Shown here: one piece after another, positions 26,211 to 44,010 of the stretch
Layout: each line of letters begins with the position of its first letter
How positions within the stretch are numbered: the first letter of the stretch is position 1
Source: an uncultured Ignavibacteriales bacterium
GTDB lineage: Bacteria; Bacteroidota; Ignavibacteria; Ignavibacteriales; Ignavibacteriaceae
DNA length: 64,000 nt
Reading direction: 5' to 3'
Assembly: GCA_963723205.1 (NCBI GenBank)
Contig: CAVRQC010000006.1
Location: forward strand, 87,477 to 151,476
Translations under genes and position numbers: made by a program
The notes under the pieces: model-generated
What the model saw: the letters and a program-made list of their open reading frames with translations, nothing else
What the model was told of the DNA's origin: nothing
Database searches by the model: none

Positions 26211-28439
26211 ATGATTTCAACAAAAGAAAATATCCTCGAACAATCAGTACAATATTTAAAATCGGTAGGCCCTAAACGGGCAGAAGCTTTTAAAAAAATC
26301 GGGATAGAAACTATTCACGATATTCTTTTCTTTTTTCCTTCCAAACACCTTGACAGAACAACAACGATAACATCATCAAAAGCATACAGCTATTTAATGG
26401 CTGGCTATGACGGAGAATTAACTATTATTGCTAAAGTCGCTGATAAAGAAATTAGAAGATTCGGCAAACGGGAAATTATGAAAGTTCAGTTAAGAGATCC
26501 TTCAGGATTTTTTGAGTGTACATGGTTTCAAGGTGCAAAATATTTTTATTCTGTTTTTAATGAAGGAGATTTTTTCGCTGTCTCAGGTAAACCGGAAATT
26601 TCAAAATACGGCAATCTTCAATTTATACATCCAGATTTTGACCGGATATCGGAAGATGAATCTCAAAATCTTTTAAATACAGGAAAAATAATTCCTTTCT
26701 ACAGGATCCCTAAAGAATTAAAAGAAAAAAATATTGGCGATTTCAGTTTAAGAAAAATTATCAGCAATGCAGTTGAAAATTATGCTGACTTGCTTGAGGA
26801 AACATTAACACAGGAAATAATTGCAGAACACAATTTATTAAATATAAAAGAAGCGGTAAAAAATTTTCATTATCCCGAAACCAAGGAAAAATTATCTACA
26901 GCTTTAAAAAGATTTAAATTTGAAGAACTATTTTATCTTGAAACGCTTGTTGCTTTAAGGAAATCAAATTATAAGACAAAACTTTCAGGGCATTCTTTGA
27001 AAATTAGATCCAAATTGATCCCGTTTTTTCTGCAAACACTTCCATTCAACCTTACAAAAGCACAGCTAAAAGTTTTAAGTGAAATTAAAAAAGACATGGA
27101 ATCTCCATTCCCAATGAACAGGCTTCTGCAGGGAGATGTTGGAAGTGGAAAAACAATTGTTGCTCTAATTGCTATGCTTATTGCAGTTGATAATGATTTT
27201 CAAGCTGCTTTAATGGCGCCTACAGAAATTTTAGCAGACCAGCATGCAAAAAACATTGTAAAATTACTCAAACCTTTAAAACGTACTTCAAATAATTCTG
27301 AAAATAAAAATCAAATAAAAGTAAGCTTGCTTTTAGGAGGACAAACCAAATCGGCGAAAGAAAAGTTAAGGATTAGTAATGAGCTGCAGGAAGCAGATAT
27401 AGTGGTAGGTACTCATGCTTTGTTTGAGGAAGATGTAAAATTTAGAAACCTTGGACTTGTTATAGTTGATGAACAACATAGATTTGGTGTTGCGCAAAGA
27501 GCCAAACTTCAAAGTAAAGCTGAAACACCGGATGTAATCGTTATGAGTGCTACTCCTATTCCAAGAACATTATCCATGACTGTTTATGGTGATTTGGATG
27601 TTTCTACTATTGATGAAATGCCGAAAAACAGGAAAGCAGTAAAAACTATTTTAAGGGATGAAAGTAAGTTGCCTGAAATCTATAAGTTCATTCTGGATAA
27701 ACATAAAGCAGGATATCAATCCTTTATTGTTTATCCTCTTGTAGAAGAATCGGATAAAATTGAATTAAAAGCTGCCGAGACTTACTATAACAAGCTAAAG
27801 GAAACTTATTTAAACAAATTAAAGATCGGTTTAGTTCACGGTAAAATGAATTGGCAGAAAAAAGAAGAAGCAATGCAGTTGTTCCTTGCAAAAGAATTTG
27901 ATGTACTAATTGCTACTACTGTTATTGAAGTAGGTATAGATATTCCCGACGCAAATATAATTTTAATAAATGACGCACACCGTTTTGGTCTTTCACAGCT
28001 TCACCAGCTAAGGGGAAGAATAGGTAGGGGAAATAAACAAGCTTACTGTATTCTTGTAACAAAAAAAGAATTTGTCTCCGAAGGAAAGTTACCCTTAAAT
28101 GATCTTGATGTTAATTATATGTCCTCTTCACAAATAGAAAAATATAAGACTTCGATAAGACTGCAATCCATGGTTAATTATAAAGATGGATTTCAAATTG
28201 CAGACATTGATTTGAAGCTCAGAGGCCCTGGTGATATTTTCAGTACTAAACAAAGTGGTTTCCCTGATTTAAAATATGCAGACATAGTCAATGATATAAA
28301 TTTATTAATGAAAGCGAAACTATCTGCATTTAAATTAATAGATAATGATCCTCATATAAATTCAGAACAAAATAAAATCATTCGACAAAATTTAATTAAG
28401 AATTATTCACACCATCTTAGTTATGCCAGGATAGCTTAA
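26211..28439 (+). CDS. recG: ATP-dependent DNA helicase RecG
   Basis: 742 aa. N-terminal wedge/OB region, Walker A GDVGSGKT, DEQH box (VDEQHRFGV), SATPIPRTL and QLHQLRGRIGRG. Confidence 0.93.
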   Translation: MISTKENILEQSVQYLKSVGPKRAEAFKKIGIETIHDILFFFPSKHLDRTTTITSSKAYSYLMAGYDGELTIIAKVADKEIRRFGKREIMKVQLRDPSGFFECTWFQGAKYFYSVFNEGDFFAVSGKPEISKYGNLQFIHPDFDRISEDESQNLLNTGKIIPFYRIPKELKEKNIGDFSLRKIISNAVENYADLLEETLTQEIIAEHNLLNIKEAVKNFHYPETKEKLSTALKRFKFEELFYLETLVALRKSNYKTKLSGHSLKIRSKLIPFFLQTLPFNLTKAQLKVLSEIKKDMESPFPMNRLLQGDVGSGKTIVALIAMLIAVDNDFQAALMAPTEILADQHAKNIVKLLKPLKRTSNNSENKNQIKVSLLLGGQTKSAKEKLRISNELQEADIVVGTHALFEEDVKFRNLGLVIVDEQHRFGVAQRAKLQSKAETPDVIVMSATPIPRTLSMTVYGDLDVSTIDEMPKNRKAVKTILRDESKLPEIYKFILDKHKAGYQSFIVYPLVEESDKIELKAAETYYNKLKETYLNKLKIGLVHGKMNWQKKEEAMQLFLAKEFDVLIATTVIEVGIDIPDANIILINDAHRFGLSQLHQLRGRIGRGNKQAYCILVTKKEFVSEGKLPLNDLDVNYMSSSQIEKYKTSIRLQSMVNYKDGFQIADIDLKLRGPGDIFSTKQSGFPDLKYADIVNDINLLMKAKLSAFKLIDNDPHINSEQNKIIRQNLIKNYSHHLSYARIA

Positions 28440-28578
28440 AGATTTAATTATCGAGAAAAAATTAATTCAATTAAAAAATTTCCCCCGTCTTTGATATAAA
28501 AAATTAATGATACCAGACACAAAAATAATTTTTAAAAAAATTTTTAAATTTTTTTTTTATTTTAAAGCAAAAAAATTA

Positions 28579-28606
28579 TTGACTTAAAAATATTATTAGT
28601 TATATT
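28579..28606 (+). promoter_or_regulatory. sigma70-like promoter candidate for the ATP-grasp/GNAT/KamA operon
   Basis: TTGACT (28579-28584), a 16-nt spacer, then TATATT (28601-28606), inside a 210-nt extremely AT-rich intergenic region with long A/T homopolymers. Such matches arise easily by chance in AT-rich DNA. Confidence 0.3.
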
Positions 28607-28649
28607 TGCTAACAAAAAAAAATTTAAAGGAAAAAAAATTTTATCTTCC

Positions 28650-29720
28650 TTGAATAACTTAAGACTGAATGTTGCATTAACATACAATGTCAAACCAGAA
28701 AGTGAAACTTTCCAAGAAAATTTATCCCCAATTTTAAAAGAACCAGCTGCAGAAAAAAAATTATTAACTGATACTTATGCAGAATGGGATACCAGGGAGA
28801 CAATAAATGCAGTTAAGTTTGCAATTGAATCTTTTCATAATGTTACAATGATTGAAGCTGATTATTATGCATTCGAAAAATTCAAGGAATACAAACCGGA
28901 TATAGTTTTTAATATTGCCGAGGGCTTTAACGGGAACGGCAGGGAAGCACAAATACCTTCTATGCTCGAGATGCTTCAAATACCTTATACAGGCTCGGAT
29001 CCTTTAACCCTTTCAATTTGTCTCGATAAAGCCCGTACAAAAGAAATTTTATATTATTATAAGATACCTAATTCGAAATTTTTAGTAGCTGATGATTTAA
29101 ACCATATATCAAACTCAAGTTACAATTTTCCACTGATCGTAAAACCCGTTTCGGAAGGTTCAAGCAAAGGGATATATTCTTCCTCCTTTGTAAATAATCC
29201 GAAGGAATTAAAAGACGAAGTTGAAAGAATAATATCTGAATATAATCAATCTGCTTTAATAGAAGAGTTTTTACCCGGAAGGGAATTTACCATTGCTATT
29301 CTAGGTAATGGAAAAACAGCAGAGGTTTTGCCAATTGTGGAAATAAATTATAATGAATTCCCCGAGGATTTTATTCCATTATACTCTTACGAAGCAAAAT
29401 GGATCCTGGACACAAAAGAAAATCCTCTGGATGTTTTTACCTGCCCTGCATTATTAGACAAACAGCTTGAAGAGAAAATAAAAAATATTTCTTTGCAAGC
29501 ATATAATATTCTTCGATGCAGGGACTGGAGCAGGATTGATGTTCGGCTTGATAAAGATGGAGAGCCGAATATTATAGAAATAAATCCTCTGCCGGGTATA
29601 CTGCCGAACCCGGAAGAAAACTCCTGCTATCCAAAGGCTGCAAGAGCAATAGGTTTAAATTATAACGATATGATCAACAGAGTTCTTTTAGAAGCTGCTA
29701 AAAGATACAACATTATATGA
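28650..29720 (+). CDS. ATP-grasp ligase, D-alanine--D-alanine ligase-like family (paralog 1)
   Basis: 356 aa with a TTG start. Ddl-like core: IPYTGSDPLTLSICLDKARTKEIL, PLIVKPVSEGSSKGI, LIEEFLPGREFTIAILG and RIDVRLDKDGEPNIIEINPLPG. The N-terminal region is atypical and lacks the Ddl GG.S.E.EVS motif. Confidence 0.8.
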   Translation: MNNLRLNVALTYNVKPESETFQENLSPILKEPAAEKKLLTDTYAEWDTRETINAVKFAIESFHNVTMIEADYYAFEKFKEYKPDIVFNIAEGFNGNGREAQIPSMLEMLQIPYTGSDPLTLSICLDKARTKEILYYYKIPNSKFLVADDLNHISNSSYNFPLIVKPVSEGSSKGIYSSSFVNNPKELKDEVERIISEYNQSALIEEFLPGREFTIAILGNGKTAEVLPIVEINYNEFPEDFIPLYSYEAKWILDTKENPLDVFTCPALLDKQLEEKIKNISLQAYNILRCRDWSRIDVRLDKDGEPNIIEINPLPGILPNPEENSCYPKAARAIGLNYNDMINRVLLEAAKRYNII

Positions 29721-30793
29721 AGATAAATGCTAAAATTTTAATTTGCTATAATTCTCCGATTAGCATCTTCCCTGTCTATAATGGAAAACCTTCAAAAAAA
29801 GGTTTATCCCCCGATGACCTGTCTGAAAAAGGATTCTCAAGAGAAATCAATAGTGTTCAAGAGAAGCTTTCTAAATATTTCCGGCATGTTTTTACTCTTG
29901 CAATAGACAGAAATGTTGAGCGTACTATTAAACAGATTAATAAATTCTCACCCGATGTTATCTTCAATTTTGTTGAAGCTGTTGAAGGAATTTCTTCATA
30001 CGAATATTGTATGGCGGGTGTTTTTCAACTATTAGGATTTGAATTCACAGGCAATCTTCCTGTTTGCCTTGGTAACTGTTTAAATAAAGCAAGAACTAAA
30101 AACATTCTTAAATCATTTGGGATACCAACTCCCGGATATATGACGGTAAAACCGAAAGAAAAAATTACTGAAGATAAATTTAACCTTCCTTATCCTGCCA
30201 TTTTAAAATTACTTAACGAAGATGCGAGTATTGGAATTTCGGAATTCTCTGTAGTAAAGAACTTTACACAATTAAAAAAACAACTAAGCTTTTTACATAG
30301 GACTTATAAACAAGAAGTCATAATAGAAGAATATGTAGATGGCCGTGAACTCAATGTTGCAATCCTAAATAACAAAGCTCTCCCGATCTCTGAAATTAAA
30401 TTTACAGGATTGCCGGATGGTCTGCCTAAAATAGTAACCTATGATGGTAAATGGATTGCAAACAGTATCTATTATGAAAACACAAAACCGAAATGTCCAG
30501 CGAAATTAAATCAAAAAATTAAAAATAAAATTGAAAAAACCGCATTATTAGCGTTCGAAGCATTAAACTGTAGAGACTATGCTAGGGTAGATATAAGATT
30601 GAAAGATAGTATACCATATGTAGTCGAAGTTAATCCTAATCCGGATATTTCTGTTGATTCAGGATTTGCAAGAGCAGCATCAGCTGCCGGCATTTCTCAT
30701 CAGGAGTTGCTGTTTGAAATTGTAAACCAGGCATTGATTCGATACAAAGAATTAAACGTAAAGAAATATGATACGGAAAATAAAGCAAGTTGA
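29717..30793 (+). CDS. ATP-grasp ligase, D-alanine--D-alanine ligase-like family (paralog 2)
   Basis: 358 aa. Same architecture as the upstream gene: DVIFNFVEAVEG vs DIVFNIAEGFNG, CLNKARTKNIL, IIEEYVDGRELNVAIL and RVDIRLKDSIPYVVEVNPNPD. Its ATGA start/stop overlaps paralog 1 at 29717-29720. Confidence 0.8.
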   Translation: MKINAKILICYNSPISIFPVYNGKPSKKGLSPDDLSEKGFSREINSVQEKLSKYFRHVFTLAIDRNVERTIKQINKFSPDVIFNFVEAVEGISSYEYCMAGVFQLLGFEFTGNLPVCLGNCLNKARTKNILKSFGIPTPGYMTVKPKEKITEDKFNLPYPAILKLLNEDASIGISEFSVVKNFTQLKKQLSFLHRTYKQEVIIEEYVDGRELNVAILNNKALPISEIKFTGLPDGLPKIVTYDGKWIANSIYYENTKPKCPAKLNQKIKNKIEKTALLAFEALNCRDYARVDIRLKDSIPYVVEVNPNPDISVDSGFARAASAAGISHQELLFEIVNQALIRYKELNVKKYDTENKAS

Positions 30794-31241
30794 TGTCGAG
30801 GAGATTGAAAGGATTTTAAATAAGATCCCGATTTTTTCTGAGGCTGAAGTTAAAGTTGGCATGGAATTGGTAAACATTGCTGCCTCGGATATTGAACAAA
30901 CTGATTACAATGTGTTTGTTTATGAAGAAGACAAAAAGATTTACGGGTATTATTGTACCGGAAGAAGACCACTGACGGATGCAGTTTATGATTTATATTG
31001 GATCGCAGCCGATCCGGAATCAAAAAAAAAAGGTATTGGTAGATTGTTATTGCAACATGCTGAAAATTTTGTTCTTGAAAAACAAGGCAGATGGCTTTTG
31101 GCTGAAACATCTTCAAAACAAAGCTATGAAAAAACAAGAAATTTTTATTTGAGAAATAATTTCTCGGTGATAGCCCAGATAAATGATTTTTATACTGTGG
31201 GCGATTCGCTAATTATTTTCGGAAAGTTTTTCAATAAATAA
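30768..31241 (+). CDS. GNAT family N-acetyltransferase
   Basis: 157 aa. Acetyl-CoA motif A (KKKGIGRLLLQHAENF) and C-terminal NFYLRNNF. Overlaps the preceding ATP-grasp gene by 26 nt. Confidence 0.8.
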   Translation: MIRKIKQVDVEEIERILNKIPIFSEAEVKVGMELVNIAASDIEQTDYNVFVYEEDKKIYGYYCTGRRPLTDAVYDLYWIAADPESKKKGIGRLLLQHAENFVLEKQGRWLLAETSSKQSYEKTRNFYLRNNFSVIAQINDFYTVGDSLIIFGKFFNK

Positions 31242-31260
31242 GAACAAACAGAGGAAAGTC

Positions 31261-32433
31261 ATGGAACTGTGGCAGCAAATGGTAAGAGACAGTATTCATT
31301 CTGTAGATCAGCTTGTAGAAAAATTCGGGATCGACAGGCAGGACGCTGAAGACCTGGATGAATTTTTCCAGGCAAGGATCAATCCTTACTATCTAAGTTT
31401 AATTAGATATCCGGGTGATCCGATCTGGCGCCAATGCGTACCTGACAGAATGGAACTTGATGATTTTGATGCGGAAGAAGATCCATTGATGGAAGATGCA
31501 ATGAGTCCCGTTCCTAATATCACTCACCGATATCCTGATCGTGCCCTATTCCTTGTAACAAGCCAATGCGGTTTGTATTGCCGTTTCTGTACAAGAAAAA
31601 GAAAAGTCGGTGATTATGAAAAAATTTCTATGAAGGGATTGGAAAGTGCATTTAAGTATATTGAAAAGCATACCGAAATAAGAGATGTTATTCTTTCCGG
31701 CGGCGATCCTTTAATGTTAACCGATGTCATGCTCGAAAAAATCTTAAAACGGTTAAGATCAATCCCTCATTTGGAAATAATAAGAATCGGATCAAAAATG
31801 CCTTGCGTTCTTCCCCAAAGAATTACTCCGGAACTATGTAAGATGCTGAAAAAATATCATCCGGTTTATTTGAATACTCATTTCAATCATCCATGGGAAA
31901 TTACGCGGGAAAGTTCTAAAGCATGTGAAATGCTTGCGGATTCCGGGATTCCGGTTGGAAACCAGATGGTTTTGATGAGAGGTGTAAATGATGATCCCGC
32001 TGTAGTGAAAGAATTAATGCAGAAGTTATTAAAGATTAGAGTCCGTCCTTATTATATGTATATGGCTGATGAAACAAAGGGAGCTAATCATTTTAGAACT
32101 TCTATAGAAACCGGTTTGGAAATTATAGAAAACCTTCGCGGTCATACAAGCGGATTGGCAATTCCTCATTTTGTTATTGATGCGCCTGGTGGAGGCGGAA
32201 AGATCCCGATTCTTCCAAATTATGTGCTGCATCATGATGAAGATAAAATTATACTCAGGAATTACCAGCAAAAGGTATATTCTTATAAAAATTATAATGA
32301 CCGTAATAACCCAAACAGTAAAAACGGCAAAACTTTCAAAATAAGAGCCAGCAAGAAAAATGGTAAATCCAAAGAAAATGAACCAAGTTTATTTGAGCTG
32401 GAAGAGCCTGTTTTTGAAGAGGTAGAAAATTAA
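31261..32433 (+). CDS. kamA: lysine 2,3-aminomutase (KamA/AblA family radical SAM, PLP-dependent)
   Basis: 390 aa. Radical SAM cluster SQCGLYCRFCTRKR, SGGDPL, and the PLP-lysine motif VIDAPGGGGKIPILPNY. Ends in a low-complexity K/N/E-rich tail. Confidence 0.88.
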   Translation: MELWQQMVRDSIHSVDQLVEKFGIDRQDAEDLDEFFQARINPYYLSLIRYPGDPIWRQCVPDRMELDDFDAEEDPLMEDAMSPVPNITHRYPDRALFLVTSQCGLYCRFCTRKRKVGDYEKISMKGLESAFKYIEKHTEIRDVILSGGDPLMLTDVMLEKILKRLRSIPHLEIIRIGSKMPCVLPQRITPELCKMLKKYHPVYLNTHFNHPWEITRESSKACEMLADSGIPVGNQMVLMRGVNDDPAVVKELMQKLLKIRVRPYYMYMADETKGANHFRTSIETGLEIIENLRGHTSGLAIPHFVIDAPGGGGKIPILPNYVLHHDEDKIILRNYQQKVYSYKNYNDRNNPNSKNGKTFKIRASKKNGKSKENEPSLFELEEPVFEEVEN

Positions 32434-32441
32434 TAATGAAT

Positions 32442-32470
32442 GCAGGGAATGCAAAATTTGCATTCCCTGC
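32442..32470. terminator. palindromic hairpin between convergent kamA and the thioredoxin-like gene (bidirectional terminator candidate)
   Basis: GCAGGGAATGCAAA-a-TTTGCATTCCCTGC has perfect 14-nt arms. It touches the stop codon of the minus-strand gene. Confidence 0.6.
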
Positions 32471-33069
32471 TAGCTGTGAGCTGTTAAAATTTTTATCATG
32501 TCTTTTTCTAATGTATCGCGGGGTGATTCAATTATTCTTCCCAGTTCATTTCCATCTTTATAAAAAATAATTGTTGGAACAAGTTCTATTTTAAGACCGT
32601 TCAGTTCATCTCCCTTTGTTTTTTTATCTTCATCAACACAAATAATTTTTACTTTTTCTGAAGGATAATTCATCGCATCAAGAATTTTAAAGAACCGGGG
32701 GACTTCCCTCCTGCTGTCACTGCACCAGGTTCCCATAACAACCTTTATATTCACATTTTTCAGACCATTTTTAATTTCTTTTAAACTTACCGAATCAACA
32801 TTATACAAATCATATTCAGACATCCACCACCAATTGAAACTCGTATCCTTAAATGCTTCTCTGCTGCATTCACCAATTAACATCGGCATTCCGGAGTAAC
32901 TATCCTTTACAATATTATTCAGTTTTTTATCTGTTGATCCGGAATCTGCCGGCAAATTTTTCATTACAACAATAATAGTATTTTGTTGAGATTTTAAGCC
33001 GGGGATTTTAGGTTTACCAAGCAATATGCCAGCAGCAAAAATAGATAAGAACAAAATTTTCATTAACAT
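32470..33069 (-). CDS. thioredoxin-fold protein, secreted or lipoprotein-like, with a monothiol WCSDS motif
   Basis: Signal-like N-terminus MLMKILFLSIFAAGILLG and thioredoxin-like core VVMGTWCSDSRREVPRFFKIL...VPTIIFYKDG. I prefer the ATG at 33069 because the 33114 start would overlap the 3' end of nadK. Confidence 0.6.
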   Translation of the reverse strand: MLMKILFLSIFAAGILLGKPKIPGLKSQQNTIIVVMKNLPADSGSTDKKLNNIVKDSYSGMPMLIGECSREAFKDTSFNWWWMSEYDLYNVDSVSLKEIKNGLKNVNIKVVMGTWCSDSRREVPRFFKILDAMNYPSEKVKIICVDEDKKTKGDELNGLKIELVPTIIFYKDGNELGRIIESPRDTLEKDMIKILTAHS

Positions 33070-43377: not shown

Positions 43378-44010
43378 ATGAGAACTTTAATATTAATGCA
43401 GGAACAAATACAGCACATTTTAAATAATATCATCTCTTTCATTTGGGGAATCCCGCTTCTTGTTTTATTAGTAGGAACAGGAATATACCTGACATTTTTT
43501 CTTAAAGGATTACAATTCAGAGAATTATATTATTAGGTTTGGCTGACATTAATAAAGCGGAAAGATGACGGTGATAATCCAGGAGATATTTCTCATTTCC
43601 AGGCTTTAATGACCGCCTTAGCTGCTACAGTCGGTACGGGGAATATTGCTGGAGTAGCTACCGCCCTGGCAGCAGGCGGGCCTGGTGCTTTATTCTGAAT
43701 GTGGATAACCGGACTATTTGGAATGGCAACTAAATATGCTGAAGCCGTTCTTGCCGTAAAATTTAGGGAAAAAGATGAATTTAGTACCATGAGCGGTGGT
43801 CCAATGTATTATATCACCAAGGGTTTAAAATTGAAATGGCTGGGAATAATATTTTCTATTTTCGTTTTTCTTGGTGCAATTTCGAAACTGGATCTGGTTT
43901 GGACATTTGCCGATATTATGAACGGTTTAATGGCTATACCAAATTTGATTGCACTGCTGGGATTAAGCGGAATTGTTGCTGTAGAAACCAAGGAATATTT
44001 TAAGAAATGA
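43378..44010 (+). pseudogene. alanine/glycine:cation symporter (AGCS family) pseudogene
   Basis: - A single reading frame gives ...IWGIPLLVLLVGTGIYLTFFLKGLQFRELYY*...[60 protein letters not shown]...GGPMYYI....
- In-frame TAG at 43534-43536.
- In-frame TGA at 43696-43698, at the Trp of the conserved GGPGA.FWMW motif.
- The sequence then jumps to a C-terminal-like end ([27 protein letters not shown]), so most of the central helices of a roughly 450-aa transporter are missing. Confidence 0.8.

Follow-up and report, generated by a model that had tools for sequence, protein, structure and literature searches.

Bacteria are known to employ beta-lysine in four ways: as a precursor of osmolytes, as an intermediate of fermentation, as a building block of antibiotics and as the modifier of EF-P. 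In the AblA/AblB (YodO/YodP) pathway to N-epsilon-acetyl-beta-lysine, of which an example from Pelobacter is available (PMC3543383), a KamA-family aminomutase with lysine-binding aspartates is co-transcribed with a GNAT acetyltransferase. A comparable pairing is encountered in a 64,000-nucleotide (nt) stretch of contig CAVRQC010000006.1 (GCA_963723205.1; Ignavibacteriaceae), hereafter the window, to whose positions all coordinates without a locus name refer; here the aminomutase (KamA) and the acetyltransferase (GNAT) share an operon with two ATP-grasp proteins (AG1 and AG2) related to the D-alanine–D-alanine ligase Ddl. With moderate confidence, this four-gene block is considered a widely conserved biosynthetic module making an N-acetylated beta-lysine di- or tri-amide, a general scheme in which much more confidence is placed than in any particular product structure. 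A first-pass annotation of the window had proposed a coupled pathway in which beta-lysine ends up in an amide-ligated product, and synteny together with KamA–AG1, AG2–GNAT and AG1–AG2 fusions now lends that proposal support.

Partial precedents for such a combination are provided by further systems. In the synthesis of N-acetylglutaminylglutamine amide (Ngg/AsnO) and of N-acetylaspartylglutamate, a GNAT and an ATP-grasp ligase, fused in Ngg, generate an N-acetylated peptide solute; the resemblance to the AG2–GNAT fusions described below is one of composition, and the ligases of these systems differ in being RimK- or cyanophycin-synthetase-like and in lacking an aminomutase or a second ligase as partner. 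Glutathionylspermidine and trypanothione synthetases are paralogous ATP-grasp-type ligases that successively acylate the primary amines of a polycation, recalling the alternative linkage of the AG pair with polyamine genes, although they belong to another ATP-grasp subfamily and use glutathione as the acyl donor. In pyrrolysine biosynthesis, the radical S-adenosylmethionine (SAM) lysine mutase PylB feeds a diamino acid to the ATP-grasp ligase PylC, which forms an amide with a lysine-type amine; PylB, however, is neither a KamA-family nor a pyridoxal phosphate (PLP) enzyme, and the system has a single ligase, no GNAT and another phyletic distribution.

Enzyme families of the four-gene block

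The genes are arranged as follows (ORF, open reading frame; aa, amino acids).

28650–29720, plus strand: AG1, putative ATP-grasp amide ligase, 356 aa from TTG, the first in-frame start
29717–30793, plus strand: AG2, putative ATP-grasp amide ligase, ORF of 358 aa
30768–31241, plus strand: GNAT, small acetyltransferase, ORF of 157 aa
31261–32433, plus strand: KamA, predicted lysine 2,3-aminomutase, ORF of 390 aa

The description of these genes in the first-pass annotation as a coupled same-strand unit is borne out by the ORFs: AG1 and AG2 meet in an ATGA overlap (29717–29720), AG2 and GNAT overlap by 26 nt (30768–30793), and the 19-nt gap between GNAT and kamA carries a Shine-Dalgarno-like run, GAGGAAAG. 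Assignment by profile hidden Markov models (HMMs), which had been suggested as a check, places KamA among the radical SAM enzymes of its family and GNAT in the acetyltransferase superfamily, with AG1 and AG2 as Ddl-like ATP-grasp proteins below curated thresholds.

KamA passes the family model TIGR00238 (310 bits, cut-off 199), contains the hallmark motifs CGLYCRFC, SGGDPL and VIDAPGGGGK to which attention had already been drawn, and shares 54.6% identity over 339 residues with the lysine 2,3-aminomutase of Clostridium subterminale (PDB 2A5H), in which D293 and D330 bind the lysine epsilon-ammonium, R134 holds the carboxylate and K337 holds PLP. An earlier hand alignment of the two aspartates proved right, with a HMMER alignment to 2A5H placing KamA D270 (YMAD) at D293 and D307 (IDAPG) at D330, as well as K314 at K337. 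Among 80 module-linked KamA homologues, the CxxxCxxC cysteines (C103/C107/C110), the PLP lysine K314, D307 and R112 (the R134 equivalent) are invariant, and D270 is kept in 79, so that the residues specifying a lysine 2,3-aminomutase are present both in KamA and across its relatives. The AblA equivalog TIGR03820 is the best specific model for KamA (476.8 bits, cut-off 525.4), ahead of the glutamate (438 bits), arginine (369 bits) and EpmB (TIGR03821; 235 bits, cut-off 369) aminomutase models. Lysine as substrate and beta-lysine as product, which would make KamA the source of beta-lysine for the module, are therefore well-supported predictions, given an identity of 55% to 2A5H and the retention of every substrate and cofactor residue.

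AG1 and AG2 are paralogues (31% identity) whose homologues form two orthologous subfamilies. Both match Pfam Dala_Dala_lig_C (E 1.9e-39 and 1.5e-31, respectively), whereas their scores on the best NCBIfam Ddl model (194 and 155 bits) lie below its cut-off of 243; a RimK model matches AG2 alone, sub-threshold, at 19.6 bits (cut-off 21). An AlphaFold (AF2) model of AG1 (pLDDT 85, pTM 0.85) was compared with solved structures by Foldseek, with Ddl structures emerging as the nearest Protein Data Bank entries (DdlB: E 8e-25, TM 0.73/0.83) and no characterised enzyme closer than Ddl. Membership of the ATP-grasp superfamily is thus indicated by domain and ligand residues in both proteins and by structure in AG1.

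For a comparison of active sites, 82 sequences of the AG1 type and 79 of the AG2 type were aligned with a reference sequence of E. coli DdlB whose key residues had been verified by assertion. Equivalents of the ATP-binding, Mg-binding and catalytic residues K97, K144, E180, E187, K215, R255, D257, E270 and N272 are invariant in both subfamilies; AG1 and AG2 are, for this reason, presumably active ligases, presumably sharing with Ddl and Van ligases an amide chemistry that proceeds through an acyl-phosphate. The residues that form the two D-Ala sites of Ddl, which include the E15/S150/Y216 triad and the S281/L282 site for the second D-Ala, are in contrast systematically altered: H63 is replaced by E and Y216 by W in both proteins, with E68 to R and L282 to C in AG1, and S150 to A, G276 to D and L282 to G in AG2. 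The N-terminal regions, which the first-pass annotation had singled out as unlike Ddl, each contain an insertion of about 25 residues in place of the Ddl GG-S-E-VS segment, interrupting the E15 segment and replacing the part that binds the first D-Ala; residues 20–41 of AG1 are of low confidence in the model, in which the insertion is disordered. A substrate of cationic nature would be compatible with the acidic residues gained, E at 63 in both proteins and D at 276 in AG2. Neither curated score nor D-Ala-site residues identify AG1 or AG2 as a bona fide D-alanine–D-alanine ligase, and the two genes, paired or fused, lie away from any cell-division or cell-wall cluster; they are best described as predicted ATP-grasp amide ligases of Ddl-related but non-Ddl subfamilies. 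The 64-kb window holds no Ddl-like ORF besides these two.

The acetyltransferase is assigned to its superfamily by Pfam (Acetyltransf_7/1/10; 44.5 bits for Acetyltransf_7, cut-off 27) and by an acetyl-CoA loop (KKKGIGR) whose G91 is kept in at least 95% of 79 orthologues. All its NCBIfam matches fall below cut-off (rimI, 34 bits against 86; aminoglycoside acetyltransferase models, about 16–20 bits), and no AblB match is obtained at E ≤ 0.01, the corresponding model TIGR03827 presumably being part of the library. Among solved structures, the nearest and the sole solid relative is 2R7H (E 1.3e-22), named a 'putative D-alanine N-acetyltransferase' and obtained from Desulfovibrio, itself an orphan structural-genomics entry that we take to derive from Desulfovibrio alaskensis G20. 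At 157 aa, against the roughly 270 aa presumed for AblB/YodP, this protein is not of the AblB type; the equation of KamA plus GNAT with AblA/AblB in the first-pass annotation consequently holds for the chemistry and fails for the acetyltransferase family.

Conservation and gene fusions

Relatives of AG1 were sought with a 10-sequence alignment as query in one genome per GTDB species, yielding at least 593 species representatives, of which the best 80 loci, dominated by Ignavibacteriota and to be read as a ranked sample rather than an unbiased census, were examined. Of the 74 loci that extend far enough downstream, 71 have the order AG1-AG2-GNAT-KamA; most of them come from Ignavibacteriota or Melioribacter, with further examples from Kryptonia-type bins, Desulfuromonadales and one Chlorobiaceae bin; a block shared in the same order by so many loci is not due to chance. 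A different order, KamA-AG1-AG2-GNAT, was recovered starting from Desulfovibrio GNAT homologues, with KamA and two AG genes present in five of the six contexts examined. Its carriers include the complete genome of D. mangrovi, a metagenome contig (L088) attributed to a planctomycete on the strength of the names (Planctomycetota) of its GNAT relatives, two further metagenome contigs, and a G20-like metagenome contig encoding a GNAT 99% identical to 2R7H. Co-occurrence of the four families beyond one lineage, which the first-pass annotation had suggested as a check, was accordingly found, albeit with differing gene orders. Where AG types were assigned by subfamily HMMs, the AG1-type gene of unfused pairs invariably precedes the AG2-type gene. 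No conserved exporter, precursor peptide, riboswitch or target-protein gene was seen beside the block, which would fit a small intracellular metabolite.

The four families are also linked by gene fusions. A survey with AG1 as query against 1.84 billion cluster representatives returned 1,238 matches at E ≤ 1e-30; among the best 150 family representatives, about 36 are AG–AG tandem proteins, three are KamA fusions and at least four are fusions of an AG2-type domain with a GNAT. By subfamily HMMs, the AG domain is always of the AG1 type in KamA fusions and always of the AG2 type in GNAT fusions. In metagenome contigs L093–L096 and L140, a KamA–AG1 protein is followed directly by a long (at least 512 aa) second AG protein; in L094 (6010–9640) these are a 695-aa KamA–AG1 protein and a 512-aa AG2–GNAT fusion, so that the whole predicted pathway is contained within two adjacent fusion proteins. 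Cross-phylum synteny and these fusions together give the functional coupling of the four families nearly the strongest support that can be had from comparative genomics. The pairing of domains further suggests that beta-lysine may be handed to AG1 and that acetylation may be tied to the AG2 step, offering a testable order of steps, and the adjacent fusions amount to a compact two-protein version of the module.

The surroundings of individual loci vary. Immediately 5' of KamA-AG1-AG2-GNAT in two Desulfovibrio-type loci (L087 2857–4293 and L089 2874–4310) lies a gene for a sigma-54-dependent activator, and expression in these loci may accordingly be under regulation instead of constitutive; in the window, the block has no adjacent regulator gene. 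In a Trichloromonas bin of the Desulfuromonadales (L080 10759–12802), the block is followed by genes for a B12-binding radical SAM protein and a TetR regulator that were not seen in the other loci. A Wallbacteria locus (L083) features a lone AG1-like gene beside an ABC transporter and an aminotransferase.

Proposed pathway, variant loci and rival explanations

In the proposed scheme, KamA would turn L-lysine into beta-lysine, which AG1 would take directly, forming a first amide via an acyl-phosphate with beta-lysine as either the carboxylate or the amine partner. AG2 would then make a second amide bond, and GNAT would N-acetylate a free amino group on the substrate or the product of AG2. AG1 and AG2 probably work as a heteromeric pair, being often joined in one polypeptide elsewhere, and the end product would most likely be a small, N-acetylated di- or tri-amide of beta-lysine in the cytoplasm, polyamine-like or compatible-solute-like in character. 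The substrates of the ligases, the order of the steps and the product are all features that we infer from sequence and gene context.

Several observations weigh against this scheme. KamA, as noted, falls just short of the AblA equivalog cut-off. Several loci encode AG-AG-KamA without a detectable GNAT, which implies that acetylation may be dispensable. The AG1/AG2 pair also occurs without KamA, beside genes for a pyruvoyl arginine decarboxylase (ArgDC), an agmatinase and a deoxyhypusine-synthase-like (DHS-like) protein, and a gene of the Peptidase_S58 (DmpA/beta-aminopeptidase) family follows a fused AG–AG gene in Myxococcota and Bdellovibrionota. The AG1/AG2 pair is thus not exclusive to beta-lysine, which may be one of several amine inputs, or may be no direct ligase substrate at all.

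The KamA-less loci comprise L067, L068 and L076, from Thermodesulfobacteriota or 'Deltaproteobacteria', and L126. In L068 and L076 the AG pair is preceded by DHS-like, agmatinase and ArgDC genes; the contig of L067 ends just 5' of the pair. A methyltransferase gene follows in all three, accompanied by GT4 genes in L067 and L068, and the order in L126 is agmatinase-ArgDC-AG1-AG2-GNAT. The DHS-like gene of these polyamine-linked loci passes TIGR00321. The fullest example, L068 2837–11859, runs through DHS-like, agmatinase, ArgDC, AG1, AG2, a methyltransferase, a 94-aa ORF, two GT4 genes and a second methyltransferase, an operon type that ties a bacterial DHS-like polyamine route to the AG1/AG2 pair.

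Other variants retain KamA or the ligases with additional partners. Between the AG pair and KamA of L099 (2789–5484) lie genes for a 442-aa protein with a faint resemblance to the UDP-MurNAc-L-Ala-L-Glu epimerase MurL (32 bits, cut-off 700) and for a PLP decarboxylase of 456 aa whose best matches, LysA and the N-citrylornithine decarboxylase FslC of rhizoferrin synthesis, do not reach their cut-offs; a similar spacing of about 3 kb separates the pair from KamA in L098 and L117–L119. Adjoining the module in D. mangrovi (L087 8629–10386) and in L088 (6211–8004) is a fusion protein of 585–597 aa that combines a weakly GNAT-like N-terminal region with a domain of the histone-deacetylase (HDAC)/acetylpolyamine-amidohydrolase family; it is conserved between the two loci (760 bits) and was not found in the window or in the other Ignavibacteria loci. 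The AG–AG proteins of about 700 aa that directly precede a Peptidase_S58 gene are encoded in Anaeromyxobacter dehalogenans (L085 9001–12757) and in a member of the Bacteriovoracia (L086 9001–12256). Such neighbours may constitute a synthesis and degradation pair for a peptide; we know of no natural substrates of beta-aminopeptidases. NCBIfam provides no name for the HDAC-like fusion, for a CxxCxxCC protein or for the S58 peptidase.

What these variants would have in common is a substrate with a cationic primary amine, possibly protected and deprotected by acetylation and deacetylation. It is possible, if more tentative than the scheme for the KamA-linked block, that AG1 and AG2 represent a new family of amide ligases, widespread and working in pairs (as heteromers or as fusions), that conjugate cationic primary amines. 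These would be beta-lysine where KamA is the partner, and amines derived from agmatine or homospermidine where its place is taken by ArgDC, agmatinase and DHS-like genes. Anaerobes of several phyla would, in that event, make undescribed polyamine-like acyl or peptidyl conjugates, with GNAT and the HDAC-like fusion contributing a protecting and deprotecting or a regulatory step.

A different destination for the conjugated amine is the alternative to which most weight is given, although it is regarded as unlikely: AG1 and AG2 might attach beta-lysine or a polyamine to a macromolecule, whether an EF-P/IF5A-like or RimK-like protein target or an envelope polymer such as peptidoglycan, with GNAT capping the amine. 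The two sets of partners of the AG pair (KamA on the one hand, DHS-like, agmatinase and ArgDC on the other) are the precursor routes of the two known EF-P/IF5A lysine extensions, the ligases descend from a cell-wall enzyme, genes for a MurL-like protein, a lytic transglycosylase, glycosyltransferases or a decarboxylase resembling LysA adjoin some variants, and neither an exporter nor a catabolic gene is linked to the block. Whereas epmB commonly neighbours efp, a phmmer search with E. coli EF-P matched none of the 6,696 ORFs that the window and all loci contain, leaving the window and about 147 related loci without efp; the RimK/EpmA-like protein modification raised by the first-pass annotation accordingly finds no backing in gene context. 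KamA, moreover, groups with AblA and lysine 2,3-aminomutase and not with EpmB (477 against 235 bits, the latter well under its cut-off), across phyla the block has no candidate target gene as a constant companion, and the glycosyltransferase genes of the window are separated from it by two unrelated genes and lie on the other strand.

The order of ligation and aminomutation could also be reversed, with KamA acting on lysine that is not free, as a lysyl moiety already ligated by AG1/AG2, or on another basic amino acid. This is decidedly improbable: the shortfall of KamA against the AblA model (477 against 525 bits), its sizeable scores as a glutamate or arginine aminomutase and the replacement of the D293 equivalent by Q in P0206, a fused KamA homologue, could all be so explained, and the KamA–AG1 fusions fit either order of reaction, but the equivalents of R134, D293, D330 and K337 are kept in essentially all module KamAs and KamA itself is 55% identical to an enzyme of free lysine. 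A plain AblA/AblB osmolyte route, in which AG1 and AG2 are ordinary D-Ala-D-Ala ligases co-transcribed by chance as bystanders, is rated lower still and can be considered very improbable. Its attraction lies in the composition of that pathway, KamA plus GNAT, and in AblA being the best specific model for KamA; the GNAT of the module, however, is smaller, matches no AblB model and belongs to another family, with 2R7H as its nearest relative, neither ligase passes any curated Ddl model or retains the D-Ala-binding residues unaltered, and, as obligatory partners that co-occur across phyla and are even fused to KamA and GNATs, they persist with KamA in some loci that lack a GNAT. Least credible of all are a first step of lysine fermentation or catabolism, which kamA initiates in clostridia, and a microviridin-like graspetide cluster (a ribosomally synthesised and post-translationally modified peptide), for which two ATP-grasp ligases and a GNAT are typical, the former being opposed by flanks devoid of 5,6-aminomutase, 3,5-diaminohexanoate dehydrogenase and cleavage-enzyme genes (kamD/E, kdd, kce and kal are not beside kamA in the window) and the latter by the want of a precursor-peptide ORF, or of any credible short ORF or room for one within overlapping genes, and by ligases of the Ddl type, with a match to RimK, the model to which graspetide ligases are similar, confined to AG2 and sub-threshold.

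The module brings known enzyme families together in a conserved arrangement. Full-text searches, with incomplete coverage of amidoligase surveys, gave no account of the four-gene module, and no curated NCBIfam model names its ligases or its GNAT. Were the scheme correct, it would add a fifth, ligase-dependent use of beta-lysine across several phyla and a missing branch of lysine/polyamine-like metabolism, reveal what thousands of genes that now bear the name 'D-alanine--D-alanine ligase family protein' do, and explain the orphan structure 2R7H.

Operon boundaries and neighbouring genes

Two features flank the block, both of which had been noted in the first-pass annotation and are confirmed here.

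28440–28649, plus strand: AT-rich spacer, 210 nt upstream of AG1, probable promoter region
32442–32470, no strand assigned: hairpin with a perfect 13-bp stem and a 3-nt loop, from a terminator-like scan

The spacer has a GC content of 15.2%, against 32.4% for the window, placing it within the lowest 0.03% of 210-nt windows, and contains a promoter-like TTGACT-16-TATATT site (28579–28606). Only low-complexity ORFs of 24–43 aa occur in it, none a credible leader peptide; an Rfam E-value scan of 28300–32700 and a gathering scan of the whole window revealed no relevant riboswitch, and no tRNA was found in the operon region. Downstream, the 57-nt stretch 32434–32490, comprising the hairpin and a second 5-bp stem, has a folding energy of -25.4 kcal/mol (z = -6.4) that was equalled by none of 200 shuffles. 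Because it separates the convergent kamA and minus-strand thioredoxin-like genes, and touches the stop codon of the latter at 32470, the hairpin probably acts as a bidirectional terminator for both.

The names of homologues agree with an origin of the window in Ignavibacteriaceae. The upstream neighbours are those of an ordinary chromosome (ftsK, smc, ppdK, queA, ispD, plsY, gpsA and recG), and the thioredoxin-like gene, an NAD kinase gene and glycosyltransferase genes follow downstream on the opposite strand. Elsewhere in the window, the region 43378–44010 (plus strand) holds two short ORFs in different frames, the second of which (43699–44010, 103 aa) matches just positions 50–106 of a 392-position sodium:alanine symporter profile (E 1.3e-32); the region resembles the remnant of a decayed amino-acid carrier, with a sugar transferase, a glyoxalase-like ORF and a cytochrome-c-like ORF as neighbours.

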